Assembly (NCBI GenBank): GCA_044892505.1 | Contig: CM097882.1 | Span: 530,968,001 to 531,032,000, forward strand | Length of the DNA stretch: 64,000 bases | Origin: Schmidtea nova | Taxonomy: Eukaryota | Direction of reading: 5' to 3' | In this document: positions 15,850 to 64,000 of the stretch, piece by piece | Numbering within the stretch: position 1 is the stretch's first letter | Layout of the letters: every line of letters begins with the position of its first letter | Translations under genes and position numbers: made by a program | Notes under the pieces: model-generated | What the model was told of the DNA's origin: nothing | The model's input: the letters and a program-made list of their open reading frames with translations, nothing else | The model's database searches: none

Positions 15850-17814
<1,965 letters not shown>

Positions 17815-17826
17815 AGAGGCTGTCTC

Positions 17827-23253: not shown

Positions 23254-23461
23254 ATTTGGTCTTTGGCCTCTATTGCAATATTATTACTTTTACTATTTTT
23301 AGTATCATTGTAGTGTGCTTGATATGAATTATTTTACTTGTATTAGTACAAATATGTTTACAAAAAGATGAACCGGAACATGAACCAGTAGGGCCAAGAC
23401 GTAAAAGAGGTAGAAAGCGTATAAACAATCGAATGAAAGGTCATGCAACTATATTTGAAGA

Positions 23462-24290: not shown

Positions 24291-24349
24291 TAAGTTTTAA
24301 CTATTATATCATACATTTATCTTCATATTTTTGTCTTAAGGTGGAATTT

Positions 24350-38627: not shown

Positions 38628-39189
38628 TGTTGGGATTATGGGTGGGTTTTAAGTAATTCAACTGAATAGTTAATCATAAATTGAACGACTATTGATGAGT
38701 ACGTATACTAGGGATTCCACGCCCATAACCATACATAACATGACTACTACACGTGTATGCCCTTGCCTATTCCCTACTAGTCAAGTTGGTACTGCATACG
38801 GTGGTGGAAAAATGATGGGCAGGTGAGCTTTGTTGCCAAAACTACTCCCCATTTATCTTCCCTCGGGTCCTTGCTGCCGATAGAAGGTCTTACGCATTTA
38901 CATTCTATGGATGTTCGCTTCCCAATGAATTTTATACTATCTATCCTCATGATCTATCACACGCTTTTCCCACTTTGCACTTTCCTTAAATGATCTACAA
39001 GGTGATTAATCAGTCTCTACGTATAAACGGTCGGTTTGAGAAAATTACGGATGAGATTTTCTATTTCGATGATTTAATTGTTGTTAATTTATTTTATTTA
39101 GTAAAATCACCCGATGAGAGACAAAATTTACACAGAAATACTTTTATTAAAATAATAAAAACAGGTTGTTATTTGACATTGATGTTTTT

Positions 39190-39774
39190 CTATGCAAACT
39201 CCAGACTAATCTCCTGAATCAGCTCCGCTTCGGTTAGGGAGTCCAAGTGGTGGATTTGTTCGTCCAGGCGCTTCGCAAATTCTCGGCGACGACGACGCTG
39301 TCGCGATCCCATTCGTTGTTTTCGAAGCTGTTTGGTTAGTACAGGTACTGACGCCATTGTTCTCGATGGATCACTGAGAAAAGCAGGCAAATCGGCCGTT
39401 ACAAAAGAGGGGGCCATTAAGATACCATCTTCCGTCCCGCAAGCGACATCTTGACAAGTACTTTGTGCCCAGCGCTGAGCCGTGATCGGCCGGATTAGCG
39501 CTCGTAATTCGGAGTCGATGTAACTTCTTGTTACTGCGTTTAGGCAATTTCGTAGTTCTCTCTGGACGGCGTCTAGTTCCAATTTAGTGGCGGCCAGTGC
39601 TTCCTGCATTCGCTCGAGTTTTCTCGATTGGTCCTTCATTTGTTCGGGCGAGAACCACTTCGCTCTCAATTCATCATTGGCGACCGTGAGTCGCTTGATC
39701 TGTCGCTGCTGGTCCCTCAACTTCCTCTCTTGGATTTGTCCCATAATTTTCTTAGAATTTTCTGAAGTCGGCAT
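39190..39774 (-). CDS. Unknown 194-aa protein: N-terminal coiled coil, Arg-rich motif (RQRRRRR), acidic/Leu-rich C-terminus
   Basis: Intact ATG ORF with a CAG acceptor 5 nt upstream; more GC-rich than its flanks. Confidence 0.6.
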   Translation of the reverse strand: MPTSENSKKIMGQIQERKLRDQQRQIKRLTVANDELRAKWFSPEQMKDQSRKLERMQEALAATKLELDAVQRELRNCLNAVTRSYIDSELRALIRPITAQRWAQSTCQDVACGTEDGILMAPSFVTADLPAFLSDPSRTMASVPVLTKQLRKQRMGSRQRRRRREFAKRLDEQIHHLDSLTEAELIQEISLEFA

Positions 39775-40101
39775 GTTGTCTGAATATTATAACGATAAAT
39801 TCGCTGTAGGACCCATCAACAATGTTATTTTATTTATTCGACTATTTATTATGGGTAAACGAGATGCATACTAATGGTTTTAATTATTGAGTTCTTTGCC
39901 GAATTATTTAACTATCTAATTATTGAAGGCTCGAAAGATTTAGTGAACTAATTTGATATTAGTAAATGAATTTCCTAGTGACTATACAACTACAACACTG
40001 GATATTAATAACTCTACATTACAACACTATTAACAAAATGAGACACTTCAGATTTCTCTAAAACATTTATTAAATTCAAAAACAGGTGGCCATCGATTCA
40101 A

Positions 40102-40578
40102 CTAGTCATCTTCGGTCATTTTTCCTCGGTACGAAAATATCGATCTGATTTGCAAATTTGTGTGGATTCCTGTGATATTGGACGAGGCTTGCTGGAAACG
40201 GATTCTCTCAGCTTCTCGAAGGGGTCGTATTGCTGTATGGAACTTGAACCCCAATTCCTTGAATGTAGAGGCTGGAATGAACCCCCAGTATATTACACAT
40301 CTCGGGAATCCTCTTTTATCCAACATCAGGACGAACCAGGCGGCGTGCCATGATTCGAATTCCTCGTCTGGAATGATTGGCCAACTAGCGCATCCCCGGT
40401 ACCATACGTGGTGCCGTGGATGGTCCCATACTGTAAATGGACATGCGGTTTCAAGCTCTCGGCGCCATGCCCACATCTTTTGATGGATTTGTTGCAGAAT
40501 TTCGAAAGGAGCCGGCTTCAATGGGCTAATTCGGGCTCGTTCTTGTCGCTTTTTGATGGTGAATCTGTGTTTAGTCAT
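40102..40578 (-). CDS. Unknown 158-aa Trp/aromatic-rich protein
   Basis: Intact ATG ORF with a TAG acceptor 4 nt upstream; GC-rich island; no family recognised. Confidence 0.55.
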   Translation of the reverse strand: MTKHRFTIKKRQERARISPLKPAPFEILQQIHQKMWAWRRELETACPFTVWDHPRHHVWYRGCASWPIIPDEEFESWHAAWFVLMLDKRGFPRCVIYWGFIPASTFKELGFKFHTAIRPLREAERIRFQQASSNITGIHTNLQIRSIFSYRGKMTEDD

Positions 40579-42142
40579 GATACTAGAACAATACCGAATT
40601 TATAATAGTTAACAATTTAAATCAATAATTAATTATAGTAGATGTTATCTCTCATCGTGATGCCTTTATAATTTGCCTACCCCTTAGACCTTAACTGAAA
40701 TCAAGGAAAAACTGTTGTTCGTTACGGTATGCATTACTCTCGTATCTGCTTAGATTTATCTGTTTACGATCAATATTATAGTCGAAAATGGGTGATTTGT
40801 CTGCGTGGATATCGAAACACTGATACCTCAAAACGGAAACTCTCTCTCATCATGTATTCCCTAGCTTATTCGAAAACACTCTTTTGTATCAAATGCGGTC
40901 GACATAATTTTTCTAAGGTTTATTAGACGTTTATTTAGCAACTGTGCTGTAGTGAGGGTGAAAAATTGGGCCTCCTCACAGTCGAAAAATTCTTTCTTAT
41001 CCTACATCGTTAGACTTTCTCCGAAAATCGCCTCCTCGATAGCTAAAATGATTGAAAATTAGTTCCCCGGATTTGTTGGGTGTCCCATGTGCAAATCTCG
41101 ACCACTACTAATAGAATCATATTTGGTTATTTATTACTTTACCGTGTGTGGAGCCCTCGAGCACCACGCCACGGACGGACACCTTGGGAACCTAAAGCTC
41201 CCAACGGCGCAAAATTAATATATCAATATTTTTACAATTAATCGTAACAAGATTTAAATAATCAAAAATTTAATGATAACAAAAACATGCATAGTAAAAT
41301 CAATAAATCAAATTTTACCAAGTAATTCCACACAATTGATCTGATTAAGTTCGGTAGTAATACAATAGTCTGAATTAGTTTGGGGTCAAAATCGCAATCT
41401 AACAATGTCTGAATTTTTTGTCTCAACAAAAGTCTAAACTCTAAATTTCAGTCTAACAAAGTCTAAGTTGTACAAAGTCTAAATTTTAGTCTAAACTCTA
41501 GTCAAAAGTCTGATTTTATGAAAAATCTGATCAGTATTTATACTGATCAGTCGTGTCTAGACCGACCAATCAGGTTCGGCCAGTTTCATGGTGGTTTTTA
41601 ATTATTGTTTTTGATTCTAATTAATTTTTATTTTTTAGATTGTATTCTTCCTTGGAGGTCCGGGTTTCCAAAAACAATTATTCAATAACAAGTACTTTTA
41701 TTTGGTTTTAATTATTATTATTTGTATTTTATTTTGTTTTTAGATGTCTCCTGGGCCCGTTAATATCTAGAAATTCATTTATTTTTATTTATCGCTTATA
41801 CTTAGTTTATCTATATTTTAACTATATTACTCCTTTCTTTTAACAAATAAATATTCCCCTTTTTACCTTATTTTTCTCTTTTTTGTTTTAATTAATCTAC
41901 TTTTATTTCACTTTTCCCTCTATTTGGCTGGCCCAACATCACTCGAGGACCCCTAAAATTGCGTCCCGCAATTAATTATACATTTACACCTATATCATCA
42001 TACATAAAAATTAAGCAGATAAATGTCAATTTACATATACACAAAGAATCACATAAGGTGATAGATTTTATACGTAAGCACAAAGTCATATTATTGTTAA
42101 ATGTAAGTGGATCATACATACAGTGAATGTAATTTATCAGTT

Positions 42143-42754: not shown

Positions 42755-42798
42755 TACATTTCATATAATTATTTACAAAAATATATTTTCCGCTTTAT

Positions 42799-43860: not shown

Positions 43861-43973
43861 TGCTATAATTACAGAAAAAAAATTTTTTAATCGGTTTATA
43901 TCAGTTATTTTTGTTTATATAATAATTTTTGGGTATTTAACTGTACATATTATTTACATGATCACTTCTCGTT

Positions 43974-45929: not shown

Positions 45930-48392
45930 CTATATCACCATCACTGTCTTTCCTTCGTACCGCTCTTCATCTTCTATTTGTCTCCAAAATTCTTTACCTT
46001 TCGTCCTCCTTTGAAATTCTTTCTGTACTTCTTCCGGTAATTCTATTCTGTAGTTCATAATTTTTATATCTGGCCAATGTGTTATTGGTTTCTTGTTGAG
46101 TACATCGTATATCCATATTATTAATAACACTGTTATTACTGGAATAGTTGCTGCTAGTATTCCTAGACCAATTAGTTCTCTAACTTGTTTGTTTACATCC
46201 ATCTTCGTAATTTCACTCTGGTTAATCATTGGTCCGTATTGTCCCTTTAGTTTATTTAGTAGTTGTTCTCGTTCTTGTTGTTTTCTTTTAACTTCTTTAA
46301 TTACTTCTTCCGGCGTCCATCTTGCGTAAGGGTCTATTACTACTTGTTCTGCGTCCATTTGTTTCGTTGTCTGACTTAATTCTTTAAATTCGAGTTTTCT
46401 CACTTTCCCTTTGGATGTTGAGTTTACCGGTGTGTAGTACGTTTTGCATCTTTCCTGCTGATTACCCAGTATGTCCGTCTTTTCTATCGCACATATCTCG
46501 TATTCGCTATTGAATTTCAGATTTCTGATACTTATTTCCTCTTTTCCTTTCACGTTTCCACAGTCTCGTGGCTGTCTTTCCCTTTGTTTCTGAACTATTA
46601 CCCAACATATTTCTAACGTTTTATTGTCTATTCTCCATAGTATAAGAGTTGCTGTAGTATTCTTTTCGGTTTTTATTTGTATTTCTTGGTTTTTCTGTTG
46701 TCCATTAGGTTTAAAGGTAGTGGTATACCTCGCTTTTCCTTTGTTCCGTTGTCTTCTACTTTTTTGCGTTGTCTTTCCAGCTCTTGTTCTGGTGGGTGTT
46801 TTATATAATTTGCATTCCAATTCATTTACTGTTATTTTGTCGCTTTTCCTAATCAGGCATATTTCGTACGTTTGATTGCTTTCTAATCCTTCTATCTGTA
46901 TTGTGGTTGTTCCTCTGTTTGTTCGACATTGCGGCGGTGTATTCTGGTTTGTTTTCTTTTCCTGCTTCTTCCAGCATACGCCTTTGACGTCCGGTTCTAT
47001 TCCGGTTAACTCTAACATTATAGTTGTTCTCCGTTTGGTGCGTATATTTCTTCTTCTTCTTCTTATGAACTTTATTGCTTCCCCGGGTTGAAATGTTTTA
47101 CAAATGGTCGTTCCTTTCTTGTGTCGTTCTTTTTCTAGTAAACATAGTTCATACGTCCTGTCTGCTTTTACTTTCGATATCTTGGTTACTTTATTTGTTT
47201 TCCTTTTCCGACTCGTCTTTATTTCGCTTATGCCAATTTCTTCGTTGTTTCGGGCCCAACACTTTAGGTTGGTATTTTGTGTATCGTTCATCTCTGTTAC
47301 TGCCATTGTGTCAATGTCTATCCCTTCTTCTAACCGTTTTAACATTGTTAATATGAGTGCTAAACATAGTAATTCTGTTTGATAGGTCACTCTTTCGGTT
47401 TCATTTGTGGTTACTCTTACTTCGGGCTTGTCTATTGTAATTCGTATAGTTGGCGTTGTTCGTCTATCTATTGTCTGGGGTTTTTTGTTTTTTGTTCCTT
47501 GGGTCTCTGTTTTTCCACACTTTCCTACGACGTAGTCTCCTTTGGATGTCTGCTGTACTGTTATGGTTACTTTGGGCGTTAGGTAGTTTGCACATGCGAT
47601 TGTGTTGTGTGATCTTGGATTCTTTTGTTTTCTGATGGTGCATATTTTGTACCAAGTATCTAGCTCTAAGTCATCGATCTCTATGATTTCTTGTTCGTAT
47701 TCTGAGATCCTGCAATCCATTGGACTATTTTGTCCCGATATTTTGTCCTTTTTCGACCAACATACTCGTTCGATTCCTTTTGCGTTTCTAATTTGTATTG
47801 TCGCTCTTTCTTCACATATCATTCCTTGAGTTGGACTAATTAAGGTCATGATTACCGTTAGTAATAATAGTTCTGGTTTAAAGAATGGGTTTATTGTTTG
47901 TTTGTAGCCTGTTCTTTTTGCTTCGTTTTTATTTTTATAGTTGTTGTTTCTTTGTTTCTCAAATTCGTTTTTCTTATCATTTTTCTCTGTGTTCCTTCCT
48001 TTCTCTTCACTGTCCTCTTTATCTGATAACTCGTGATCCTCTGTATTTTCTCGAGTACTATCGTCGTTGCTTCCTGTATTGTCGCCTCCCCTTTGGTCGC
48101 TGAAAATGTCGTCCTCGACATTAATTGCTTCTATCATTTTTTCATACGTTATGGTTGTGAGTATACTTGCTTCATATTCTTGTGTTTCTGCCTGCTTAGG
48201 TATTTCATTATCGGTTAATTTACAATCTAGAATCTCTTTCTTGGCTTTTATCCAATTTTGAGGTACGTTTTCATTAGTTCTTTCCATTTGTCCGTACGTT
48301 CTGTTTCCTTTGGGTTGTTTGTGAATCGTAAATCTTTTCTTCTCATGAAGATGTCTATTATCTTTGGCCATTTGTTTATTATTAATGCACAC
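45930..48392 (-). CDS. Type I membrane protein with internal signal, four FN3-like repeats and a TM; probably the frameshifted C-terminus of the polyprotein
   Basis: Signal LLLLTVIMTLISPTQG; four repeats of W...I.xLxxxxxYxIC...C..(Y/F)x(T/Q)P; TM LIGLGILAATIPVITVLLIIWIY. Overlaps the pol stop, and one extra A at 48256-48259 would join the two. Confidence 0.75.
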   Translation of the reverse strand: MCINNKQMAKDNRHLHEKKRFTIHKQPKGNRTYGQMERTNENVPQNWIKAKKEILDCKLTDNEIPKQAETQEYEASILTTITYEKMIEAINVEDDIFSDQRGGDNTGSNDDSTRENTEDHELSDKEDSEEKGRNTEKNDKKNEFEKQRNNNYKNKNEAKRTGYKQTINPFFKPELLLLTVIMTLISPTQGMICEERATIQIRNAKGIERVCWSKKDKISGQNSPMDCRISEYEQEIIEIDDLELDTWYKICTIRKQKNPRSHNTIACANYLTPKVTITVQQTSKGDYVVGKCGKTETQGTKNKKPQTIDRRTTPTIRITIDKPEVRVTTNETERVTYQTELLCLALILTMLKRLEEGIDIDTMAVTEMNDTQNTNLKCWARNNEEIGISEIKTSRKRKTNKVTKISKVKADRTYELCLLEKERHKKGTTICKTFQPGEAIKFIRRRRRNIRTKRRTTIMLELTGIEPDVKGVCWKKQEKKTNQNTPPQCRTNRGTTTIQIEGLESNQTYEICLIRKSDKITVNELECKLYKTPTRTRAGKTTQKSRRQRNKGKARYTTTFKPNGQQKNQEIQIKTEKNTTATLILWRIDNKTLEICWVIVQKQRERQPRDCGNVKGKEEISIRNLKFNSEYEICAIEKTDILGNQQERCKTYYTPVNSTSKGKVRKLEFKELSQTTKQMDAEQVVIDPYARWTPEEVIKEVKRKQQEREQLLNKLKGQYGPMINQSEITKMDVNKQVRELIGLGILAATIPVITVLLIIWIYDVLNKKPITHWPDIKIMNYRIELPEEVQKEFQRRTKGKEFWRQIEDEERYEGKTVMVI

Positions 48393-51300
48393 TTTATATA
48401 CAAATTTTGGCCTTGTTCCATGAACTCGTTGATCCTGAATGCTGGTTCATTGGTGTTTGGGTTCATCCAATTGAGTATTGCTTCGGTTAGTTCAGCGTTA
48501 TGCATCATGGAATGTACGCTAGCTTTTTTAACTGTCCTTGTAAGGTATTCTATTTCCTCCTGATTTGTGATTGTTTTTATAAAATTTATCACTTCCCAAT
48601 TGTGTGTTAACAACGCTACGTCTAGTATCGAGCTGTCTTTGTTCGTTCTTCCCATGAGTCCTGGACCTGCTTCGTACAGTTCCTGTAACACTCGGGTTTT
48701 TGTGTTCGCTCTTGCTGCGAATATCATGAAGGTATCTCCCTTTTTATCTTTCATGTTCATGTCACTTCCGCAATCTTGCATCAACCGTGCAATTTCGACT
48801 ATCCTCCTCTCTTTTCTTGCTCGTAAGGCTCTATGTATTGGCAATACTCCATTCTTGGTTAATAAGAAAGTCACTGGCATTTCTCTTTTTATGGTCATCA
48901 TATCGTTTTCATTGTAAGTTCCTTCCGCGTATGCGTGTACCTTTTCCACAATTGCTCCGAGTATCTCCAGTGTATGTTTAGAATTTTCGAATTCTGGTAA
49001 TAGTTCTTTTGCTTTGTCCTGTATCGCATCTAACCTTTCTTGATATGGTACTTCTGCGTTGAAAAGTGGTGTAAATTTCCTTTCGCTTTCTCTTTCCTTT
49101 CGACATAGGAATTGTTTGCATTTCTCGGGGTGGTTTAATATGTCTATTAGTTTGTCATACTCCTCCTCCACCGTTTTGTATTTGTCTTGAAAATTGGATA
49201 TATCTTTGTAAGTTATCGTCTTGGTTAGCGATTTTGCACACCATTCCCTAATTTTCCTGAATAATGCTTCTTTTTCACTTTCGAATTTACATTCCTCTTT
49301 GTTTTCGGAAATTATGATATTTCCTCTGTCTAATAACATTAACAGTGTTTTCTGATCACAAACTAATTTTAATAGGAATTGTAATAACGCGTTTTGTCCT
49401 TCACTGTATACCTCGTTTATATTTAACACCCATGTATCATTTTCGGATCTTTTCCATTTTATTAGCTTGCGTATTGTTTTGCAGTTACCGATTTTTATTG
49501 CTTCCTTTATTATATCACCCTTGATCAGTTCGTCTATTTCCCAAGTGGTCTTTTCGATTATTTGTTTGAGCATTATCTGATTTGAGCTCCATATTGCGTG
49601 ATTCAAGACTGTTTTGTTTTCTCTATCGCGTTCCGTCCAGTTGAAATTGGCATTTATCAAAAGGTCTATTATTGCTTTATCCGATTTGTAGATGGCTGCT
49701 ACCATTAAAGGTGTTTCTTGTTCGCTATTCCCAAAACCAAGGTGTTGATTTGTTTCCTTTGCGATTTTTAGAAATTCTTTTACTCTCTCTACTTCTCCCC
49801 ATTTTATGGCATTATGTAATGCTGGTTGTCCTCCTATGTCTTGTAGTGAAAGTATTTCTGGAATTTTTTCCAGTAGTTCTGAAATGACTGATTTTGTTGG
49901 TAGTCCCCTTGCGTAATCACTAATTATCAATTGTATATCTCTTAATATATCGTCTCTGACATGCCATTTTCCCATTATTTCTCTGGCTTTTAGTACAATT
50001 TCCTTGTTTCTTTTTTCTTGTTGATTGTTTTCTGCTTCGGTACTTTCATTGGTTGCTCTGAGCATATTCATTCTGGCTGTCTGGGATCTGGTTATTATTC
50101 GTTCTTCTGGCGCTGTGGTTATTGTTTTTGGTACTTTCTTACATCTGCATGTATTAACGTATATTGGTCGTATCAATGGTCGATTAACAAGTTTTACCTT
50201 CACATTGTTTTCCTTTTTGTATATAACTTCGTAAGGGCCTTTTCCTGGTCTTTGTAGTTTTTTAACGGTTCCTGGTATTATTTCTGGGGTTTCTATCATT
50301 ACCCAATCTCCGGGTTTAAGATAATTTGTTTTAACGTTTTTCTTTTGATCGTGTAGGTCCTTGTAACTTTCTTGATAAAACTTTATGTTTAGTTCTGCTG
50401 TCTTCCATATCTCTTGCATTCGTTCTTTGAATTTGGTGACGTAATCATCTTCCTCCATATATTGAGACAAAGGTGGTTGATATTCAAGATCTATTGGCAT
50501 ATTGCATTCCCTTCCATACATTAATTGGAATGGACTCAATTTTGTTGCTGCGTGTATCGACATTCGGTATGCCATTAGACATAGCTTTATGTACTCATCC
50601 CAATCTGTTTGGTGTTTGCTTACATAATTGGATAACATTCGAATCAATGTGCCGTTAAATCTTTCCGTTTGTCCATTGGTTTGCGGGTGATATGGTGACG
50701 TTCGTAATTTGGCTATTCTGAAGTAGTTTGTTACCTCGTCTAATATTTCGCTCATAAAATTCGTCCCTTGATCTGTCAGTATTTGTTTAGGGGTTCCATA
50801 TCGACAACATATTTCCTCTACTAAAATTCTTGCTACTGTCTTTGATTTTTGATCCGGCATCGCAAATGCCTCAGGAAATTTAGTTAAATAATCCGTTATT
50901 ACCAATATATATTGATTCCCGTTTAAACTTTCTGGTAATGGTCCTATTACATCCATCGCAATGGTAGTCATTGGTTCCGCTGGTATTGGCATGGGTTTTA
51001 AGGGATTTTTCCATTTCTTCCCACTATCCTTTCTTGTGGCACAAGTTAAACAGTTCTTTATCCATTCCTTTACGTCCTCGTCCATTGTTGGCCAATAATA
51101 TTTTTGTCTCATGCGATCTAATGTTTTCTTATCGGACATATGTCCTCCTAGCTTTCCGTCGTGGTATTGAGTTATTATCTCTTTTCGTCTATTACCTGGC
51201 AGACACATTAATCGTTTCTCTCCATCTCGTATTAATAACCATCCTTTTTCTATTGTGTATCGATGTTGGTATTTCCTCATGTGTTCTTTTAACTCCGCAT

Positions 51301-54040
51301 TGTCTTTGAATACATCCATATTCCGTGAGCTTAGGAATTCTATGATGGGTCTTAGTTCTTTATCCTCTTGCTGATCCTTCTTTAACTCACTGAAATCCAA
51401 ATCCTCTGCTATCACTATGCATATTCTTTGCACTTCTGGGTCTGTTAGTTCCGGAAACGTTAATCTTGACATACAATCCGCGTTGGCATTCGCTTTCCCT
51501 GATTTGAATTTTATATCTGGTGAATATTCTTGTAATTGCATCGCCCATCTCATTAATCTGCTGGATGTTTCCTTATGTTGTCCTAGCCATACAAGTGGTT
51601 GATGGTCTGTGGTTATGCATATGACGTGTCCCCATAATAGATATTTAAAGTGTTTTATTGCTAATATTATTGCCAATGCTTCTCTTTCCGTTACTGAATA
51701 ATTCTTCTCGTGTTTCTTGAATGTTCTGCTATAATATCCGATTACTCGCTCTTTACCTTCGTCATCATATTGTCCTAACACTGCTCCTGCTGCATATCCA
51801 CTTGCGTCGGTTGCGAGTAAAAATGGCTTTTTGAAATCCGGGTGAACCAATATTGGTGCAGTTATTAGCTTATCTCTCAATGTTTCGAAGGCGGTTTGTT
51901 GTTCAATTCCCCATATGAACGATACGTCTTTCTTTACTAGCTCTTGGATTGGTTTTGCAATTCCTGCGTAATCTTTTATGAATTTTCTATAGTAACCGCA
52001 TAATCCGAGAAATTCTTGGATCTGCGTTATCGTCTTTGGTATTGGACATTCTTTTACTTTATCAATGTTTCTGGGATCCGGTTCCTTTCCTTTTGCGGAC
52101 ACAATATGTCCTAAAAATGTCACTTTCTCCTTTGCCCAATCGCATTTCGATGGTTTGAGCTTGAGTTTCCATTGTCTCAATCTCACAAATACATCTCTGA
52201 TATCTTGGATGTGTTGTTCAAATGTGCTCGAGTAGATTAGTAGGTCATCAATGTAAACCATGCATTGTTTTATGCCGTGGGTAACGAAATTCATACATCT
52301 TTGAAATGATGCTGGCGCATTGGTTAGTCCGAATGGCATTTTCCTAAATTGGTACAAGTCTCTTCCGATAGTGAAAGCAGTTTTCTCTTTGTCTTCTTCC
52401 TTCATTTTAATTTGCCAGTATCCGCTTTTCAAATCCAATGATGTAAAATATGCCGCTCCTTGTAATGTTAATAACATCTCGTTGATGTCTGGTAATGGGT
52501 ATGTATCCCGTTTTGTTACCGCATTTAATCTCCGATAATCAATACAAAATCGTTGTGTTCCGTCTTTCTTTTTCACCATTACAACTGGGAATTGCCACGG
52601 TGAGCAGCTTGGTTCAATTACTTCCGCATCTAGCATTTTCTGTACTTCCGCTTCTGCTACTGATTTTTGCGCTTCAGCTAACTTGTATGGTCTTAACGCA
52701 ATCGGCGTTTCGTCTGTTAGTGGAATCGTATGTAGTGTGACGTCGCATGTCCCTAGATCTAAATCGGATGCTGCGAATATGTCTTTATATTCTATCAGTA
52801 ATCTTTCTAGCTGTTTCTTTTGATCCTCATTCAATAGTTGGCTATCAATGTTCCAAGTGGGTTCTTCCTCTTTTACTCCTTCTTTTATTGGTATTTCGAT
52901 ATCTATCATTGGAGTTAGTTTACCCAATCTTTCATTTTCATAAATTATTTTATCCTCTTCATCGAAATTTACTACATTTATCGGGATTTCTCCGTTATCA
53001 TTCGCACTCACTAATCCCCTTGCCATTGGCAACGACTTTCTCTTTTCAAATCTTTTACTGGGTTCAAAGATCATGTCACCTTCTATTGTAGGATCTATTT
53101 TTACGAAACATATTTTCTCTCTCCGTGCTGGTACGATTATTTGTTTCGAACTTGTTACTTTTGCTTCTATTGCGCATATCTGTCCTGTCCTATCCTTTAA
53201 CCTCATTGTTCCGAGGTCAATAACTATTTCTTTAAATAATGCTGGCATTAAATCTGTGCCTATAATGCATGGTACGCTCAGTGCTGGTATTACTGCCACG
53301 TACGCTTCGATTTCTGTGTTTTGATGTTTTATCTTCACCCACCATCTTTCGGCAACTTCTACTACTTCTTTACTGCATGCTATTACGTGAACGTTGGTTC
53401 TCTCAATATCCCGTCTTTGTTCTTGTGGTATCCATTTTATATCTATTGCTGAGATATTTGCTCCTGTATCAATCATCGCTTCAATTTCCCTTCCGTTAAT
53501 TTCGATTGTTGTAGTTAATACTGGACCGGTGTTTGATGACATTACTGCAATTGTATGTGAGTCTCCTTGCGGATCTACGCTTCTGCACCGTCTCGTTCTA
53601 TAGTCTTCTGGTATCATAGGATATATGTTTGTCATCGGCATCATTTGCATTGTATTTTGTCTCATCCCGGGTGTTGGTTCTTGGTACATGGTTGGTGGGG
53701 GTGCGTAACACTTCCACATTTCCGCTGGATTCTTTTCGACGTACTGTGGTACTTGGTTTTTATATACTTGGCCTCCTTCGTTTTCATCATCATCGTCGTC
53801 ACTGGAATCGTCTTGGGTTCTGTACCCTTTCATTCTTTCCCATAGTCCTTTTCTCTCTTTCTTTAGTTGTTGTCTTGCTTGCTCGTTATTCATTATCTTT
53901 TTAAATTTTCGTCCCACCTCTTCATCGGTTCCTTTCATTTTTGCCAGTATTTTTAGGAGTCTCTTTATTCGGTGAATATCTTTTGAATGACCGTGTAATA
54001 CCATTGTTTTAGCCAAAAATGGTAAGAATCCTACCACCAA
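48248..54040 (-). CDS. pol: Pol: aspartic protease, RT, RNase H, integrase (HHCC, DDE, GPY/F) plus C-terminal ankyrin-like repeats
   Basis: AMIDTGANIS (~53465); RFCIDYRRLN, LDLKSGYWQ and VYIDD (~52250); LATDAS..TEREALA..TTDHQPL..NADCMSR; YHDGKLGGH..CLTC; MDVIGP, TDQGTNF, QTERFN; KGPYEV; then PALHNAI, TPLMVAA, TVLNHAI, LPIHRAL. Confidence 0.95.
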   Translation of the reverse strand: MVVGFLPFLAKTMVLHGHSKDIHRIKRLLKILAKMKGTDEEVGRKFKKIMNNEQARQQLKKERKGLWERMKGYRTQDDSSDDDDDENEGGQVYKNQVPQYVEKNPAEMWKCYAPPPTMYQEPTPGMRQNTMQMMPMTNIYPMIPEDYRTRRCRSVDPQGDSHTIAVMSSNTGPVLTTTIEINGREIEAMIDTGANISAIDIKWIPQEQRRDIERTNVHVIACSKEVVEVAERWWVKIKHQNTEIEAYVAVIPALSVPCIIGTDLMPALFKEIVIDLGTMRLKDRTGQICAIEAKVTSSKQIIVPARREKICFVKIDPTIEGDMIFEPSKRFEKRKSLPMARGLVSANDNGEIPINVVNFDEEDKIIYENERLGKLTPMIDIEIPIKEGVKEEEPTWNIDSQLLNEDQKKQLERLLIEYKDIFAASDLDLGTCDVTLHTIPLTDETPIALRPYKLAEAQKSVAEAEVQKMLDAEVIEPSCSPWQFPVVMVKKKDGTQRFCIDYRRLNAVTKRDTYPLPDINEMLLTLQGAAYFTSLDLKSGYWQIKMKEEDKEKTAFTIGRDLYQFRKMPFGLTNAPASFQRCMNFVTHGIKQCMVYIDDLLIYSSTFEQHIQDIRDVFVRLRQWKLKLKPSKCDWAKEKVTFLGHIVSAKGKEPDPRNIDKVKECPIPKTITQIQEFLGLCGYYRKFIKDYAGIAKPIQELVKKDVSFIWGIEQQTAFETLRDKLITAPILVHPDFKKPFLLATDASGYAAGAVLGQYDDEGKERVIGYYSRTFKKHEKNYSVTEREALAIILAIKHFKYLLWGHVICITTDHQPLVWLGQHKETSSRLMRWAMQLQEYSPDIKFKSGKANANADCMSRLTFPELTDPEVQRICIVIAEDLDFSELKKDQQEDKELRPIIEFLSSRNMDVFKDNAELKEHMRKYQHRYTIEKGWLLIRDGEKRLMCLPGNRRKEIITQYHDGKLGGHMSDKKTLDRMRQKYYWPTMDEDVKEWIKNCLTCATRKDSGKKWKNPLKPMPIPAEPMTTIAMDVIGPLPESLNGNQYILVITDYLTKFPEAFAMPDQKSKTVARILVEEICCRYGTPKQILTDQGTNFMSEILDEVTNYFRIAKLRTSPYHPQTNGQTERFNGTLIRMLSNYVSKHQTDWDEYIKLCLMAYRMSIHAATKLSPFQLMYGRECNMPIDLEYQPPLSQYMEEDDYVTKFKERMQEIWKTAELNIKFYQESYKDLHDQKKNVKTNYLKPGDWVMIETPEIIPGTVKKLQRPGKGPYEVIYKKENNVKVKLVNRPLIRPIYVNTCRCKKVPKTITTAPEERIITRSQTARMNMLRATNESTEAENNQQEKRNKEIVLKAREIMGKWHVRDDILRDIQLIISDYARGLPTKSVISELLEKIPEILSLQDIGGQPALHNAIKWGEVERVKEFLKIAKETNQHLGFGNSEQETPLMVAAIYKSDKAIIDLLINANFNWTERDRENKTVLNHAIWSSNQIMLKQIIEKTTWEIDELIKGDIIKEAIKIGNCKTIRKLIKWKRSENDTWVLNINEVYSEGQNALLQFLLKLVCDQKTLLMLLDRGNIIISENKEECKFESEKEALFRKIREWCAKSLTKTITYKDISNFQDKYKTVEEEYDKLIDILNHPEKCKQFLCRKERESERKFTPLFNAEVPYQERLDAIQDKAKELLPEFENSKHTLEILGAIVEKVHAYAEGTYNENDMMTIKREMPVTFLLTKNGVLPIHRALRARKERRIVEIARLMQDCGSDMNMKDKKGDTFMIFAARANTKTRVLQELYEAGPGLMGRTNKDSSILDVALLTHNWEVINFIKTITNQEEIEYLTRTVKKASVHSMMHNAELTEAILNWMNPNTNEPAFRINEFMEQGQNLYIKCALIINKWPKIIDIFMRRKDLRFTNNPKETERTDKWKELMKTYLKIG

Positions 54041-54043
54041 TTT

Positions 54044-56665
54044 TCAATTTACTTTCTTTTCTCTTTTATAGATGTCAAAACAGGCTAACATTTGCGTTAT
54101 TATTACCCGTATTATTTGTATAATTAGTATAACCCCAAGTATTCCTGCCATCATTTGTCCAAATATTAAAAATCTTCCCCACATCGCTTTCATCATGTTT
54201 TCCGTTGCCTTCTTAAAGTGGGCTGGTGACAATAATAATTCGTAATTTGGTCCACCTTGGTAATTTGTTCCTCCTGTTATTGTTACAATACTGGATAGCA
54301 CCGCTTCCCTTCTTGCTGGAAATAGTATGTTTTGTCTCGCTGCCTCTAAGTCTTTTGCGCTATAGAATCCCATATTACTTACATCTACGTCTTTAAATTT
54401 TCGTCCTTTTGATAGTTGCATCAATTCAAATTCCCTTGGTGCTGGTACCTCTGTTCTTGATGGAAACATAACCCAATTTCCGTCTGGTTTTTGGTATAGT
54501 GGTCCATATGCGTTGCTGCAATTGAAAGGATTTGGTTCGAAGCTTACTGGATTTATGATTCTTGTCACTGGTTGCACATATCTTACCTTCCCTTTGTATT
54601 CGATTTCTAGTTCGTTAGTACACTGACCTGGTTGTAGTTTTGTCATTGTCGCTACCTTCGCATTTGTCTTTTTACATATGTATACATACATCACCTCTCC
54701 GACTACCCTTCCAAAATGACCTTCTCTCAATGGTAATAATGGCATTACACTATCCGGGTTTGTGATTGCTACTGCTAGTTTTGTCTTTAATATTTCCCTA
54801 TTTAATATACAATCGTTATTTATTAAGTCGTAATACACTTTTTGTAGTGACGCTTGTCCTCTATGGAATAGAAAATCCATTTTATTATTCATGTAAAGGT
54901 GTAATTTAACATCGTTCGAGTGCACTTTGCGTTTCGCACTAGGTACTTCTTGTTTTGATACAAAAATGCCGGGGTAGTTGGTTTCCAACATGGCTACTCC
55001 GCATTTCAAGGCTGTTTTTCCTTTTACAAACCTCATTCCGATATCTGCATCTGAGGTAATTAGTACCGTTGGTGTATTTCTCATTTTAATTTGTTTTTCT
55101 TGTGTTCGGGTTTCAATCTTTTTCTCTCCCCGTACTGTGTCTTGAAGTATTTTTCCTCTTGCTGCCTCGTCTTCTTCTTCCTCTTGGAAGGTTTTCCCTT
55201 GTATCTCATCGAATTCTGCTTCCTTTAACAGTTGTAGTTGACATTCCTTTCCTCGTATCTGGTATGTTAAGGTTGACATACCGGTTTGGCAAGTGTTTGA
55301 CTCGATTTTGCACATGGGCAGGGTTTTCATTTCTCCCGTTGTTGGATCGAAGAATGCCTCGTACGTTTTTAATTCCACTGTATAAGTATCTATTACTACT
55401 AGGTTGGTTGCTGCTACTCCGAATATTGGATATGTTGCTCCTTAGCAATACCCTTCTCCTCCCGTAATAGCTCCTGCTACATAATATGTTTGTTGCAATA
55501 TCACTCCCGTTTTTCCTCTTATCTTTACTCTATCTCTAGTCTCTACTTCTCCATGTTTGAATAATTTTTCACAGTCTTCTCCTTGCAGCATTACCGATTC
55601 TCTTTCCGTTCCTGGCATCACGATTGCTGAATAATGGCGGTGCCCACAATAAAAAGCAAATCTGGTTTTATAAACTTTGCATTCTCTGACCATTGTTCTT
55701 ATCAGTTCAGCTTCCTGATATACGTGGTATAATTGTCTCTTTTTTAATGTTTTTAGCTCCGTTGGGGTTGCGTCTTTACATTGTTCTGTCCCTCGTAATG
55801 AGTATTTTTCACCTAATGCCATTTGATCGCAATCGAATACTTCAAATGCTGTTGCGCCGTCAGTACTAATCATCCATATTAACATCATCATAATAATGGA
55901 ACTCAAGTTTAGTGACGATTTCCCGTTTCCTGTTCCCGACTTTTCCTTTTCCAATTCTCCCAATATCTCTTCGAATTTCTTTTTCATATTTTTGGCTTGG
56001 TTTTTCTTTTGGTTCGTTTTTGTGAATGTTTCCCATCCTCCTTTACTGATGATGTACGGTTCTATTTCCTTCTCTATAATTTTGGCTGTATTCTTTATAT
56101 GTCTTTCAAGTGCTGTGGGTTTCAGTCGACCTCTACTCAGTGTCAACAGATTGTAAATTGTGTATGCCATAGCTATTAAATATTTGTTATCCGTCTCTGC
56201 TCCTTCCGTTAACTTCTTTATCAACATCGTGGTTCCTTGCCAATCTAGGTGGTTTGACCTTGTCTTTTCTTTTATTAGTTCTGGTAGGATTGGTGCGATG
56301 GCGCTATGTAGTGATTTCGCCCTTTCGCTTATGTCGTTTATTCTCCACCATTTTTTTAATTCTGGATCGATTATTGCTAGTATTTCCATTAACATCTTTG
56401 ATATCCATTCTTCGCCTTGGTATGTTTGTGTTGTTTCTTTTTCTTTCGTTTCGGCTATTTTATTTAGTTTCTTTAGACACAAATCCCATTGATCCCGTCT
56501 TTTTTCCTCTCTTGATTTTATAACTACATTTGCTGGATCCATCTTGGGTCTACCTCTAGGTCGTTTATCCATTGTCGTGCCCGTTTCTACTAATCTTGTT
56601 TCTCGTCCAGTTTCTTCTGTGACGTCTCTTGGTTCATTGGCTCTTTCTTCTAACAATCTTTCCAT
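54044..56665 (-). CDS. env: Envelope precursor: Bcl-2-like leader + signal + chuvirus-type (gB-like/class III) glycoprotein; one in-frame TAA at 55442
   Basis: ATA|FEVFDC......YSL...EQC start; ECKV.....YCGH..YS; C-terminal W..F..FGQ.MAG+LG++LII TM. ORFs 55442-56665 and 54044-55378 share one frame. Confidence 0.8.
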
Positions 56666-56722
56666 TTCTTGTGTGAATTGTACATTTTCTACATTTGCCC
56701 TCCTTGCTTCCTCTTCTGCTAT

Positions 56723-59700
56723 TTAATTTACTTCTTCTATGATTATTTCTTGTTCGACTTCATCTTCGGTGTTGGTTATCGGTATTGCTGTTGGTAATTC
56801 TTGAATTCTTTCGAAAATATTATCATCTTTCTCTTTTGTTAGCTCTATTAACTCCTCTAACATATCATCACTATCTGTAAAAATTTCGTCTACATCGTAT
56901 GGTTCTGGTGGTGTTCTTTCTCTTGTCTCTCTTGGTGTTGTTCTAGCTTGTTCTGAGCTTGTTCCTGGAGTCATTACCGATTTCATTGGGCTCGGCGTAC
57001 TCATAATTCCTTTTGGTTTCTTTTCCTCTTTCAATTTCAATGGTTGACCTGCTATTGCTGCCACTGTCAATGTATTTGCGATATCTAATTGCGCTGGCGT
57101 TATTCCAATTTCCAAGCTGTTATCTAATGATCGTCCTTGGTGTTGTAAATGGAATGGTGGTTCATATCTCAATTTCTTTTTAATGTCTCGAACTTTCTCC
57201 GCTATCCCTACCCAAAACTCTTCCTTTTCCTGGTTCGGATATACTATTCTTAGGTGTACTTTCTGTGGCGATTCCTGCGAGAATTCCTGGTTTCTCCATT
57301 TTTTAATTACGTGGTCCAATTGTTCTGGACACCACTCGTTAACTCTTTTGTATTCGGCGATTGCTTTTGCTACTTTACGCAAGCATGTTATGTCTTCTCC
57401 ATTAACTACGAAAAAATCTGCGAGACCTTTTACTAATTTTCTCTTGCCGTGCGCATTGGTTTTTAATATTTCGACAAATTCTTCCGTTTTTTGTTTTTCT
57501 CTTTCCAACCACATGGTTGTCGTTTCTGGTCCGTCTAAATCTGCTGGCATGGCTTTTCTTGTTACCATACAAACCCTTCCGGTTTCCGGTTTGTGATCGT
57601 CCTCTACGCCTATTTCATATTCTTCTTCGTATTCGCCTGCTTTTGGTTCCCAACATTTTCCTCGCTCGTTCCATTTCTTTTCTACAGGTGTTCGTAATCG
57701 TCTGTTGAGATTGAGTTCTTCTAATACATTTTCCCATTCTGGCCAAATCCGCCAATTTCGATAGATGTCTACTATTTGTTGTAATTTATGCACAACTTCT
57801 TTTTGTCGTTCCCGTTCTCTTTTCTCATCTTTAGCAGTTTCTCTTGGTGTATCGTCCATTCTGATAACGTGGATGGTTTGGTGGTTATCCCATATACCAA
57901 TTTTATATAGCCGTCTTTCATCGTGATCCCATAATACATGTTCGTTATATTTCATGATTATGTCATCTTCCCATTCTTCTTCTGGTTCTCTTTGTAATAG
58001 TGTCTCGTTGATGACATTTACTAATTCTTTTATGGTACAATCTGCTACCACTTCAATTTCTTTGGTATCCTCATTAGGTAATTCCACCGAAATTTTTAGA
58101 TCTGTTATTTTTCCTTGTCTAAACATTGCTTTTCCCATTTTTGCAATTACTTTTCCGTATGAGATCTGTGACCATCTCGTGTGACTTGTGTCACGTATGC
58201 ACTCGATACATCGTTTCAACTTTTCGTATTCGCTTCTCATTAACTCCTTTCTATGTTTTTTGATTTGTGGGATGATTTGTTCTATCATGGAATTTAGATT
58301 TCCTCGTAAGATTCGTCCTTTCTCATATTCTAACCGTGGTTTTATCTTCTTCTCGAAACACGTATTTGCTTCCTTTGCTACTTCTTGTAGGTTCTCTTCT
58401 CTCTTATCATCGCATATCGATAATGTTGTCACCTCTCCTGGCCATATGCCTGTTTCTATCAAATGCGTCCTTTTCTTCACTAGTCCATTCTGTGAATAGA
58501 GGAATTTGTTCTTATATGAACTCCCCAATCTGTCTTCTACCCATTGGTAAATATCTTCCGTTAGTGGAGTTTTGATCCAAATCCTTGGTAGACATGTTTT
58601 TATCTGTATTAGTATTATATATTCGTGGAGTGGTTCTTTTAATAATTTTCCTACGTATTGGCTTAGTGTTTCTACTTCCCGGCCTGGTAACCACTCTTTA
58701 TAGTTCATTTGTAATATCGCTCTCATGAATTTCCGATAGTGTTTCTTGTCAATGAATTCCTCATTGTATATTACTTCTAGCGCATTATCTAGTAATTTCT
58801 GGATCTCGTCCTCTTTTACTTGAATAGTTTCTGGTGTCTTTACTACTTCTATCTTTTTGTCTTCAATTTCTGGTTCGTTTAGCATGTCCCCTGCTAGACT
58901 ACTGACGTCACTATCCTCTTCGTCGTCTGAAAAATTCTTTGCCTGGCCTCTCAACATGTTAATGTGTTTTGTTTGGTTGGTTTCGCTTGGTGTATTTTCC
59001 GTTGGTCTTGTTTCACTTTTAATGGCTTCTTGTGTTGATTCACTCTTGCCGTCTACTACTTCGACCTTTCTCATTTTTCGTTCTAACTCGTCTATTTCTC
59101 CCAACCGTCTTCGTATCATTTTCCCTTTAATTATTCGACTGATTCGTGTTTCGTGACGCACTGGCGATGGAATTCCTTCTGGTTCTATTTCCTTGATTAC
59201 CATCACATTTCTTTTTGTCTCTACTACTCCCATGTTTTCCCATGTATCCGTTAGTTTCAATTTTACTTCTGGTGCACCTTCTATTTTTAGGAATGCTTCT
59301 CTGGGCAGTTTCGTTACTCCTGGAGCCATTTCATTCACTTTGTTGAACAATATTCCTACTTCTTCCTTTATGTTATATTGGAATCGAAACACGTGCTTGT
59401 TTGGCAAAATTACCATCATTCCTCTTTTCCCGAGTTTCCTTTTCTCTTCTTGGTTCCCTTCTTTTTCTACTTCCTTTTCTGTTTCTTTTTCTGCTTCTTC
59501 ATCTTCTTGTATTATCTCTTTTCGGCCTTCGTTGTTGGTTGGATTCGGGTTTGTTGGATTTATTTCTGGCACGGTCTCTTTCTCGTGGGTATTTGTTTGA
59601 TTGGTTGCTCTCATCATATTAATTCTTAGAGGTTGTCGTTCTCTTTCTTGCTGTTTTTGTTCCTCTTCTCTTTGTATTCTTGCCCATTCCTGAGCATGTC

Positions 59701-61471
59701 GTGCTTGACTTTCCCGATTCAATCGTTCGTTTTCGCTTTCTATTTTTCTCATCATGTTGATTTGTTGTTGACCTGTTTGCGGATTTCCTCTGTTTGTATT
59801 GTTTATCAGCTCCGTCAATCTTTGAACCTCTTGCATTAAATGTATTTCTTTAGGGGTGTTTTTATTTTGGTTATTATTATTATTATTTTGCTGGTTTCCG
59901 TATTCCGGTCGGTTTCCATTATTTGGCTGATTCCCATAATTCGGTTGGTTTCCACCAGTTGGTTGGTTTCCATAGTTTGGTCGGTTTCCAATATTCTGCC
60001 AGTTTCCTCGTTGATTGCTTCTTTGTCCGCACTTTCTTGATAGGTGTCCAGGTCGTCCACTGTTAAAACAGGTTATTGTGTAACATCTGCTCTCTGAATG
60101 TCCTTTTACTCCACATTTTCCACAATTCAAGTTCTGATAACATTCTTGTTGCCAATGTCCCAATTTCCCACATGTTTTGCATTGTTTCGTTGGTCCTTAG
60201 GGGTTGTAATTGTTTTGATTTCCGTAATTTGATACTTTATTCCCTTCATTCCTTCGCTGAGGTGGTGGTCGGTTTAATTGTTGTGAATTTGGAATGTGGT
60301 TATTCAGGTTCACTTCTTGTTCGTTTTGTGCTGTATCCATAGCTAAATAGATTCTACCGTCATTTCCTATCATGTGTAGTTCAAATCTATTAGCTGTTTC
60401 TAATGCTTGGTCAATAGTTTTACACCCTTGACATCCAACTTGCGCTCTTATGTCGGGTCTTCTCAATCCTCCCACAAAGATAGCTGCCATTAACTCCTCA
60501 TTTATTGGACTGTCTTGATTGAAGATCAACTTTGCTAACTTTTTCAATTCGCTTGCATATACCGCATTCGATTCATTTATCTTTTGTTTCCTCATTGAGA
60601 ATTCCGTGAATGCCTCATTCAATACTTTATTTATTCCGAAGGTTTGTTGGAAAAAGTCCTTTATCGCTGACCAACTTGTAGGTGGATTAATTCCGTTTTT
60701 TGCTTCCAAATATAGATCTAATGCGCTATCTTTTAAATATAGCTGAATTCTGCTTACAGTTGTTTCTGGTTTCCACTTGCATACTTCCACGAATATGCCA
60801 AATTCCTTTAAGAAAGTTTCCAATTTACTTGCATCTCCATTAAACGGTTCTCCGGAAAATTTGTCTTTTATCTCTTCTCTGGGTTCGCTCATTTCGATTC
60901 CGCTGTCTGTAGTTATTTTATTTTCGTTTCCTCTTGTTTCTAGTTCACTGTTATGTTCGTCACTCGAATTTCGGTCGATCTCAGTTTCTTTTGCTGATTC
61001 GTTATCTGATGCTTTACTATCGTTATCGGTATCGTCACTTTCTGTTTCTTGTTCTACTTCGTCTTCTATTTCTTCGATATAATCGTTGTTGGTTTTGTCG
61101 ACTTCTATTTCACTTATTGGGTTTCTCTCGGGTTCTGCTTGATTTTCTTTGTTGCTTGAGCTGTTGCTTGTTACTGATAATTTGTCGTTCTCGATAATCG
61201 ATTTCTGTATTATTATCTTCCTCGCTTTACTTCCTTTTAGGCCTTTCTGCTTATTATTCTTGGTAGCTTTATTCTTTTCTGCTGGATTTATTACCACACT
61301 ATTTGGGTCCTCTTTGTTGATTTTACTGTCGACTTTCTTCTCTGCTGGTTTTATTATGACACTCTTTTCTCCTTTTCTCAACGGGATTACTTTTGTATAC
61401 TCAATTTTCCTGTCTTATCGTATTCCGATTCTTTTCTTCCTTGGTTGCTTGGTTTGGTTTGATTGATTTAT
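56723..61471 (-). CDS. gag: Gag (capsid, three CCHC knuckles) with a ~1000-aa extension containing three putative ubiquitin-like domains; in-frame stops at 61415 and 60197
   Basis: PFNGDASKLETFL..F..LYLKDSA.. and KQKINES...Y..EL.KL...FVGGL capsid motifs; CKTCGKLGHWQQEC, CGKCGVKGHSESRC, CFNSGRPGHLSRKC. All in the same frame as env and pol. Confidence 0.88.
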
Positions 61472-63103: not shown

Positions 63104-63565
63104 TTATAAATAAACTACAATTTTATCAGTTACAGAGAAATTGCACATGGGGCACTCATCACACTTATTCGCACAGTTTTTACAGAATCGAAAATGTCCG
63201 CATGGTAGAAACATTATTTGGATTTCACTGTCTTCGCATATGTAACATTGTTTATATTGTTTTGCTGCCTCGACCCCTTGCGACATCCATCGGTTATATG
63301 TTAGACTTAACTGCTGTTCTATATGTCGGCATCTGATATTCAACTCGGCATCCTCTAATCGTGCTTTGTACCATTTATATCGCGTATTTATATCGAGTTT
63401 ATTTACTTTCTCTATGATTTTTATTAACTCAGTTGTTTCCTCCGTTTGTGTCGTAGGTTCCTCATATTCGGATGCTCTTATTCGGGTTATTTTTTCGCAG
63501 ACTGTCTCAAATGTATCGTTCTCGGTGTTGAAAAATTCCTCGATTTCTTTCAGTTTTTCCTCCAT
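63104..63565 (-). CDS. 153-aa protein with a C-terminal IAP/MDM2-type RING finger (putative E3 ligase)
   Basis: CYIC......FLPCGH..FC..CA.....CPMC......IVVYL at the extreme C-terminus; no BIR seen. Confidence 0.85.
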   Translation of the reverse strand: MEEKLKEIEEFFNTENDTFETVCEKITRIRASEYEEPTTQTEETTELIKIIEKVNKLDINTRYKWYKARLEDAELNIRCRHIEQQLSLTYNRWMSQGVEAAKQYKQCYICEDSEIQIMFLPCGHFRFCKNCANKCDECPMCNFSVTDKIVVYL

Positions 63566-63894
63566 TTCCTAGATAATTTATTTAATTACTGTGTTAATAT
63601 TATTCGAAAAGTAGTGCTGTGTTTCGTTTTCGACAGTTTATAGCCTCCCCCCCGTGTTTCGGTAAATTGTCGTCCCGACCTGTTGTTTATAATTGCATTT
63701 ATTTAATTTATCTATTTCATTGTGTTGTTGTTTTTATTTACTCAGTTTGTTTAATTCTCTGTTTATAACTATCTATTTCCACGCAACTCGCTTTCGTCTC
63801 AATTACTTATTCGGTTACTATTTTTCTCACAAAATTCTGATTTTAAACTCTCTGTTGTCATTGGGTTCACCTTTTCCGCATAAAAACTAAGTTG

Positions 63895-63918: not shown

Positions 63919-64000
63919 TGTTGGGATTATGGGTGGGTTTTAAGTAATTCAACTGAATAGTTAATCATAAATTGAACGACTATTGATGAGTACGTATACT
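63919..64000 (-). repeat. 3' end of the 5' LTR of the giant element (cut by the window edge)
   Basis: Identical to 38628-38709. Confidence 0.9.

Follow-up and report, generated by a model that had tools for sequence, protein, structure and literature searches.

Results

Layout of the element

The Bcl-2-like stretch described here lies on the minus strand of a 64,000-nucleotide piece of the planarian Schmidtea nova genome (assembly GCA_044892505.1, contig CM097882.1, positions 530,968,001 to 531,032,000; hereafter the window), inside a Burro-type Ty3/gypsy LTR retroelement. Comparison of the two LTRs revealed 8 mismatches over 3291 aligned bases and one 20-base indel, and the element is flanked by a 4-bp target-site duplication. 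The near-identical LTRs, their TG/CA ends and the duplication together indicate a young element of about 28.6 kb, which is laid out as follows, in its own 5' to 3' order.

63919..64000, minus: inner end of the 5' LTR, which runs 3209 bases past the window end (locus L067)
63104..63568, minus: accessory RING ORF (PF13920, E=5.6e-12)
48248..61414, minus: single polyprotein frame, Gag-CCHC-ubiquitin-like-Bcl-2-signal-Env-PR-RT-RH-IN-ankyrin (ORF list and Pfam)
60461..60739, minus: probable Gag capsid domain (PF03732, E=5.5e-4, below the cut-off; resembles the Gags of sister elements)
57554..57577, minus: last of several repeated candidate viral-protease sites ahead of Bcl-2 (from motif repetition)
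57047..57262, minus: ubiquitin/SUMO-like domain (pattern and position as described in PMC6431247)
56543..56566, minus: AT-hook-like RGRP motif (from sequence; present in families B and C as well)
56444..56506, minus: extra helix ahead of alpha1 with a BH3-like pattern, L-x-x-I-A (alignment A1)
56009..56425, minus: Bcl-2 fold, alpha1 to alpha8, with a degenerate BH1 (profiles, model, dN/dS)
55940..56005, minus: basic amphipathic linker helix from BH2 to the signal
55847..55903, minus: predicted internal signal peptide, a 13-residue hydrophobic core (55865-55903) with a small-residue end
54098..55846, minus: Env, a Monjiviricetes/gB-type fusion glycoprotein (PF24664, E=7e-12 and 7.5e-53)
49550..53512, minus: protease, RT, RNase H, integrase and ankyrin repeats (Pfam)
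45930..48446, minus: C-terminal part of the polyprotein, with a second internal signal, FN3-like repeats and a transmembrane helix
43974..45383, minus: accessory TRAF-like ORF with zinc fingers and MATH (PF22486, E=8.7e-21)
38628..41938, minus: 3' LTR, 3.3 kb, with TG...CA ends

Pfam recognizes Gag, a zinc knuckle, the Monjiviricetes fusion glycoprotein in two pieces, the Pol enzymes and the ankyrin repeats. The ubiquitin/SUMO-like stretch has no Pfam match, and a stretch resembling it precedes Bcl-2 in families C, D and E too; the AT-hook-like motif matches PF02178 in family C only, at E=0.81. The C-terminus of the RING ORF is presumably of the IAP type. Downstream of the TRAF-like ORF, positions 42146-43914 (minus) hold ORFs of 371 and 205 amino acids with no useful Pfam match, and ORFs of 198 and 165 amino acids inside the LTR (39193-40599, minus) recur in other copies. 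Outside the element, long ORFs at 15850-20259 (plus), 21928-24787 and 32573-33562 (plus) comprise a second retroelement-like pair, two further ORFs and a membrane-protein-like ORF.

The polyprotein frame and its copies

In the window copy the polyprotein frame is interrupted by in-frame stops at 60197, 56723, 55442 and 54044 and by a frame change near 48250-48446. It thus appears as abutting ORFs (60197-61414, 56723-60196, 55442-56722, 54044-55441 and 48248-54043) that share one frame with single stops between them. In another copy the C-terminal part at 45930-48446 is in frame with Pol; its FN3-like repeats are weak matches (E 0.16-0.19). A complete polyprotein would span the membrane four times, with this C-terminal part exposed as a second surface protein. 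The four stops and the frame change are found despite an LTR divergence of only 0.24%, and the window copy perhaps derives from a parent that was already defective.

A genome search with the domain returned 1739 candidates; all of the 150 that were scored match it. Counted by eye, 51 of these 150 copies have an open frame of at least 5000 amino acids, the commonest length being 5140; they divide into 34 of 81 in family A (the first 81 rows, 93-100% identity) and 17 of 69 in family B (the other rows, 85-93% identity). The initial annotation had placed the Bcl-2 domain in an ORF at 55442-56665, as the leader of the envelope protein. This ORF is not a gene, and the leader reading is not supported: the bounding stops at 55442 and 56723 occur in none of 29 other copies and are therefore private to the window copy, so that the domain starts some 1,650 residues into a Gag-Env-Pol polyprotein, preceded in the same frame by Gag and other domains. 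Read-through of the stops, or an alternative genetic code, was considered and rejected, both of the two stops checked (out of four) being private to this copy. With the window copy broken upstream, the protein would come from other copies. A search of sequencing runs found the domain stretch covered by two contig sets of unspecified kind; no RNA set was among those listed.

Resemblance to the Bcl-2 family

The peptides on which the initial annotation was built are all present on the minus strand in one stop-free frame: the alpha5-like YLIAMAYTIYNLL lies inside 56132-56191, the alpha6-BH2 GGW at 56033-56041 and the FEVFDC start at 55846. The proposed alignment to alpha6-BH2 of Bcl-xL reflects a real resemblance, as judged by profiles, sister families and a structural model, but the direct match alone is not significant (best phmmer hit in the PDB a Bcl-xL chain, E=0.9). 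Other searches with the window family were negative: PF00452 was not matched in Pfam, the protein-representatives search gave 0 matches at E<=0.001, homolog searches with the domain and with alignment A1 returned no relatives, and the 9 rows listed of 30 ESM Atlas matches were repeat proteins, with no Bcl-2 cluster among them. Negative or weak single-sequence searches of this kind would be expected of a chance GGW match in a helical linker without Bcl-2 ancestry. We nevertheless find that reading hardly credible: it is contradicted by above-cut-off PF00452 matches of sister families in this very place, and hhalign, a host-exon profile, a continuous BLASTP block and structural matches all oppose it.

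Searching the genome with PF00452 gave 149 matches, 33 of them above the cut-off of 31.4 bits. Of 30 loci fetched from this search, 14 look like exons of the host, and the other 16 are elements in which Bcl-2, signal and Env follow in the order seen in the window; they make up sister families C, D and E, which have Gag-Bcl-2-Env-Pol frames of about 3,000 amino acids. At the same place, these sister elements score 23.6-34.5 bits against PF00452 (C 33-34, exceeding the cut-off; D 27.8-34.5; E 23.6), and family D matches Bcl-xL at E=6e-4 and the joint profile at 1.5e-7. The window family is linked to the sister families by hhalign (94%) and by BLASTP, which aligns them in one continuous block over Bcl-2 and Env (E 1e-121 to 1e-126). 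Scored with a profile built from 10 host Bcl-2 exons, the window domain gets 16.9 bits, and none of 2000 full shuffles (maximum 7.9) or 2000 BH2-keeping shuffles (maximum 15.0) reaches this score; the Bcl-2 spot is the profile's best place in 4389 residues. The Bcl-2 resemblance is more than chance, and the domain stands in frame between Gag and Env in five families.

A protein named Schmidtea mediterranea Bcl2-2 shares 99% identity with one host Bcl-2 exon of the same genome, and a host Bak-like query returned a single protein from the protein collections. The genome holds at least 14 host Bcl-2-like loci (L031-L039, L042, L050, L052, L056 and L059), within which a small divergent group, L036, L038 and L050, scores best against the element profile. 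In a tree of the last 75 residues, built from 8 element and 10 host rows, the elements fall on one side of a branch (93/94), with the same three host loci nearest (77/81). Because the latter support is weak and long branches meet there, we claim no host donor; host derivation is the best explanation for the Bcl-2-fold domain.

Predicted fold of the domain

An AlphaFold model computed from 8 element rows only reached a pLDDT of 45. Foldseek ranked Bcl-xL and Mcl-1 first for this model at a best, non-significant E of 0.83, and in VIA Bcl-xL came first, at a Z of 7.7 that unrelated bundles equaled. A second model, from an alignment (A6) that joined 15 element rows to 9 host rows cut back to alpha4-alpha8, reached a pLDDT of 76.5 and a pTM of 0.75. 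Every PDB row listed by Foldseek for this model belongs to the Bcl-2 family (query TM 0.45-0.63, probability 1.0), with a best E of 2e-3 and none at E<=0.001; herpesvirus v-Bcl-2 leads in a viral structure library; and ranks 1-34 of a VIA search of 48,161 chains are all Bcl-2 folds, the top match at Z 13.2 (rmsd 2.6, 137 residues aligned) and the first unrelated fold at Z 6.2. Model residues 29-167 (56009-56425) align over the whole Bcl-2 fold, from alpha1 to alpha8. The host rows bias the C-terminal half of the model; alpha1-alpha3 draw on element rows only and still align to Bcl-2 folds. The Foldseek comparison that the initial annotation had proposed thus returned a Bcl-2 helical bundle, in a model with host rows in its alignment and beside an element-only model of low confidence. 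Together with the sequence profiles, the models indicate a Bcl-2 fold for the window domain.

A Bcl-2 fold need not bind BH3 peptides. Poxvirus A52, A46 and N1 are Bcl-2-fold scaffolds with signaling roles, and the element's domain could have been reused in the same way, as a scaffold that does not bind BH3 and that modulates TRAF/NF-kB-type or ubiquitin signaling. The ubiquitin-like domain next to it, the TRAF, RING and ankyrin modules of the element, and the loss of the BH1 glycine in all families fit such a role. The model is, however, nearer to cellular Bcl-2 proteins (Z 11-13) than to N1, A52 and A46 (Z 7.7, 6.7 and 6.5), and BH2 and a basic BH1 residue are retained; we consider this alternative somewhat unlikely. 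A complex prediction for residues 29-167 with a 39-residue host BH3 region, in which the alignment was not used, scored 0.02 against a mark of 0.34 and bears neither way.

Motifs and selection

The BH2 GGW is nearly invariant in families A-D, being kept in 36 of 36 A/B matches, 16 of 16 in C and 30 of 32 in D (some loci overlap), and is decayed in 15 of 18 E/F matches. That NWGR of BH1 is not conserved had been noted before and is confirmed: its position reads TDNK in the window and DKDK, NRDR or DENR elsewhere. The BH1 glycine is absent, and a basic residue stands at the position of the BH1 arginine, in all 102 matches across the families (some loci overlap). Loss of the BH1 glycine cripples Bcl-2 and Bcl-xL. 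Only 2 of the 10 host exons retain NWGR.

Ahead of alpha1, the extra helix (model residues 2-19) lies beyond the range aligned to Bcl-2 structures. Its L15, I18 and A19 are invariant in alignment A1, with few variants across families; in shuffles, the core pattern appears in about 1% of 40-residue slots, and the polyproteins themselves contain it 1-4 times each. The aspartate of BH3 is replaced by E, N or S, and the helix in families C, D and E resembles a BH3 helix minus this residue. A conserved BH3-like helix outside the fold, together with BOK (Z 11.2) and BAK (Z 11.0) among the structural matches, raises the question of a pro-death or permeabilizing role, in which the helix would be exposed to host pro-survival proteins, or the domain would form a Bak/Bok-like pore, to aid particle release. 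Against it speak the missing aspartate, the poor fit of stem-cell killing to a high-copy resident element, and the protective IAP of Burro1 cited in the accessible part of PMC13465017, and we regard such a role as very unlikely.

Between families A and B, the Bcl-2 core has a dN/dS of 0.05-0.07 over 138 codons in four of four pairs, next to 0.07-0.09 for Env. Between D and C the values are 0.14 for Bcl-2 and 0.11 for Env; between D and E, Bcl-2 evolves faster than Env (0.31 versus 0.04). The Bcl-2 domain is under purifying selection.

A predicted internal signal between Bcl-2 and Env

Two hydrophobic segments only precede the protease in the window frame: residues 1837-1849, 60-70 residues after GGW, and the Env transmembrane helix at 54098-54154, Env itself carrying the stop at 55442 in the window copy. 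Signal features were judged by hydropathy and inspection in families A, C, D and E, and in all four the first segment closes with a small-x-small cleavage pattern; the PF24664 Env model begins on this segment, at profile position 4-6. Cysteines number 13-14 in the 560 residues after the signal versus 0-3 in the preceding 300 in the families checked (14 versus 1 in the window). The segment therefore looks like an internal Env signal peptide, with cleavage predicted just before 55846. From the start of PF24664, the small-x-small end and the cysteine-rich ectodomain we infer that Gag-Bcl-2 would be cytosolic, Env luminal and Pol again cytosolic.

The initial annotation had assigned this segment a double use, as Env signal peptide and as tail anchor, with signal-peptidase cleavage leaving a membrane-anchored viral Bcl-2 that could counter apoptosis while particles form or fuse. 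The first use stands, and the predicted topology keeps the segment on the Bcl-2 side. A true tail anchor is not supported: the core has 13 residues, lies 60-70 residues after BH2, would enter the ER membrane in the way of a signal, and belongs to PF24664. Cleavage would indeed leave the upstream product tethered to the ER, and not free at mitochondria, but with some 1,650 residues upstream in the same frame, signal peptidase alone would free Env and not a stand-alone Bcl-2; freeing the Bcl-2 part needs a second cut. In family A the repeated protease-like motif has its last copy at residue 1281, which would yield a product of about 575 amino acids; the motif was not found ahead of Bcl-2 in families D and E.

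A derivative family without Env and Pol

A non-autonomous LTR family, F, of about 6.9 kb with LTRs of about 1.05 kb, occurs at loci L107-L122 (for example L108:687-7626 and G000:C3:76181800-76190300). The LTR pair is clear in 8 of 10 loci, the others being one tandem array and one locus without a pair, and the LTRs are 96% like those of family D. Its ORF of about 985 amino acids comprises Gag, ubiquitin-like domain, helix, Bcl-2 and signal and then runs on into the extreme C-terminal end of family E, with neither Env nor Pol. Of 150 rows, 17 have an open frame of 981-1001 amino acids. A second hydrophobic segment in this ORF was considered as an Env transmembrane helix and rejected, because its match, at about 79%, is to that same end of family E. 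An overlapping 636-amino-acid ORF belongs to no Pfam family, locus L104 contains a related older form, and copies L119 and L120 carry an E-like Bcl-2 part, suggesting recombination.

Between families F and E, dN/dS is about 0.3 for Bcl-2 and 0.07 for Gag; within F, Bcl-2 gives 0.4-3 on 1-3 synonymous changes, which indicates no clear constraint. We accordingly rejected family F as proof of selection on Bcl-2 without Env; it neither shows nor excludes an Env-independent role. Family F bears also on the possibility of a chiefly structural role, in which the domain would act as a spacer close to the membrane and hold Gag at the site of Env on the ER, in the manner of signal-anchored flavivirus capsids and the foamy-virus Env leader. 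The domain is in frame with Gag in every family, and family F keeps the Gag-Bcl-2-signal part open in the absence of Env and Pol. A spacer would, however, have no need of BH2; candidate protease sites stand between Gag and the domain in family A; and in family F itself the within-family dN/dS of Bcl-2, on its very few changes, and the decay of GGW in the E/F matches tell against it. We think a mainly structural role quite unlikely.

Discussion

Our analysis places a Bcl-2 fold between Gag and Env of a giant planarian retroelement. The presence of such a domain is already known, and the claim of the initial annotation that no retrotransposon-encoded Bcl-2 was known does not hold: Burro/GYPSM1 elements, giant Ty3/gypsy elements of planarians, are credited to Jurka 2007 and Grohme et al. 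2018, and the latter noted a BCL2-like motif in Burro-2, -3 and -4 (PMC6431247). The element described here shares with them a single very long ORF that carries Gag, CCHC, ubiquitin/SUMO-like and BCL2-like parts, then env in frame ahead of PR, then Pol and ankyrin parts; it exceeds 25 kb, has long LTRs and a high copy number, and has a single ORF of about 5,000 amino acids, broken in the window copy. The second Burro example in that review has an ORF1 of 5,140 amino acids, equal in length to the commonest open frame found here, and a separate TRAF/MATH ORF, which lies upstream of ORF1 there and downstream here; the element further differs from Burro as described in its 3.3-kb LTRs, and no BIR was found inside the window. 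The protein searches returned none of the named Burro1-4 sequences. Section 7 of the review treats Burro without topology, a signal/anchor reading, a BH3-like helix or an Env-less derivative, and the fold, topology and extra helix refine the 2018-2019 annotation. Our literature searches turned up nothing on the Env signal serving as an anchor or on the extra helix, and no description of a conserved BH3-like helix before alpha1 or of an Env-less Gag-Bcl-2-signal family; Grohme 2018 and a Dev Cell 2026 study may cover these points. The accessible parts of PMC8532177, PMC11410931 and PMC7586133 added nothing on the Bcl-2 domain.

With Hydra HyBcl-2-4, BFL-1/A1, Bcl-xL and the KSHV, BHRF1 and A179L proteins, the window domain shares an eight-helix bundle over 130-137 residues (Z 10.6-13.2), and with the Bcl-2 family (PF00452) the BH2 GGW. 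It differs from them in its 6-18% identity, in the loss of NWGR, in the extra helix ahead of alpha1, in being part of a polyprotein, and in taking its anchor from the Env signal instead of from its own tail close to BH2. GAG-ENV-POL errantiviruses with an HSV/gB-type Env, reported from Nematoda, Bryozoa and Platyhelminthes, share the gene order and the Env ectodomain between a signal/transmembrane segment and a transmembrane helix; 'Burro', 'planarian' and 'apopto' each occur 0 times in the main text of that report (PMC13524379).

In conjunction with the selection on the domain and the predicted topology, we propose the following model. The ribosome would make Gag through Bcl-2 in the cytosol, and the internal signal would then send Env into the ER lumen. 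Signal peptidase would cut after the signal, so that the upstream product would keep it as a C-terminal anchor, while the Env transmembrane helix would bring the protease and Pol back to the cytosol. The upstream product may in turn be shortened by the viral protease to about 575 amino acids, containing the ubiquitin-like domain, AT-hook, BH3-like helix, Bcl-2 and anchor. Persistent, membrane-bound signal peptides occur in MMTV and HERV-K Env, the foamy-virus leader peptide, HCV core and the flavivirus anchored capsid, where signal-peptidase cleavage likewise leaves a cytosolic domain tethered by the signal; to our knowledge, none of these carries a Bcl-2 fold.

What is the relevance of a Bcl-2 fold in this position? 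An anti-apoptotic function of the domain is likely. The full reading, namely a Bcl-2-fold product tethered to the ER by the predicted Env signal, facing the cytosol and damping cell death in the expressing cell, we judge to have about an even chance of being correct. We count in its favor the RING and TRAF companions in the same element. An ER anchor far from mitochondrial Bax/Bak counts against a pro-survival role, as does the missing BH1 glycine, although most host exons lack NWGR too. One may also consider a self-gated viral Bcl-2, in which the BH3-like helix would fill the groove in cis or between neighbors and be released or exposed by polyprotein processing, with the Env signal as ER anchor. 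We speculate that cell-death control would in that case be switched by particle maturation, and hold the idea to be unlikely.

Burro elements fill planarian genomes, and a 2026 study cited in the accessible part of PMC13465017 reports that the IAP region of Burro1 protects stem cells from caspase-mediated death. If the proposed reading of the domain as an ER-tethered, death-damping product is true, this bargain between host and element would be widened by a second captured death regulator, one that uses the Env signal as its anchor and has been kept by selection in five or more families of a single genome. The isolated domain lends itself to direct testing. A separate observation concerns the TRAF-like and RING ORFs, which sit between the LTRs: some of the TRAF genes investigated in planarians as genes of the host could be copies carried by such elements, and a paper on these genes (PMC7586133) mentions transposons 0 times.
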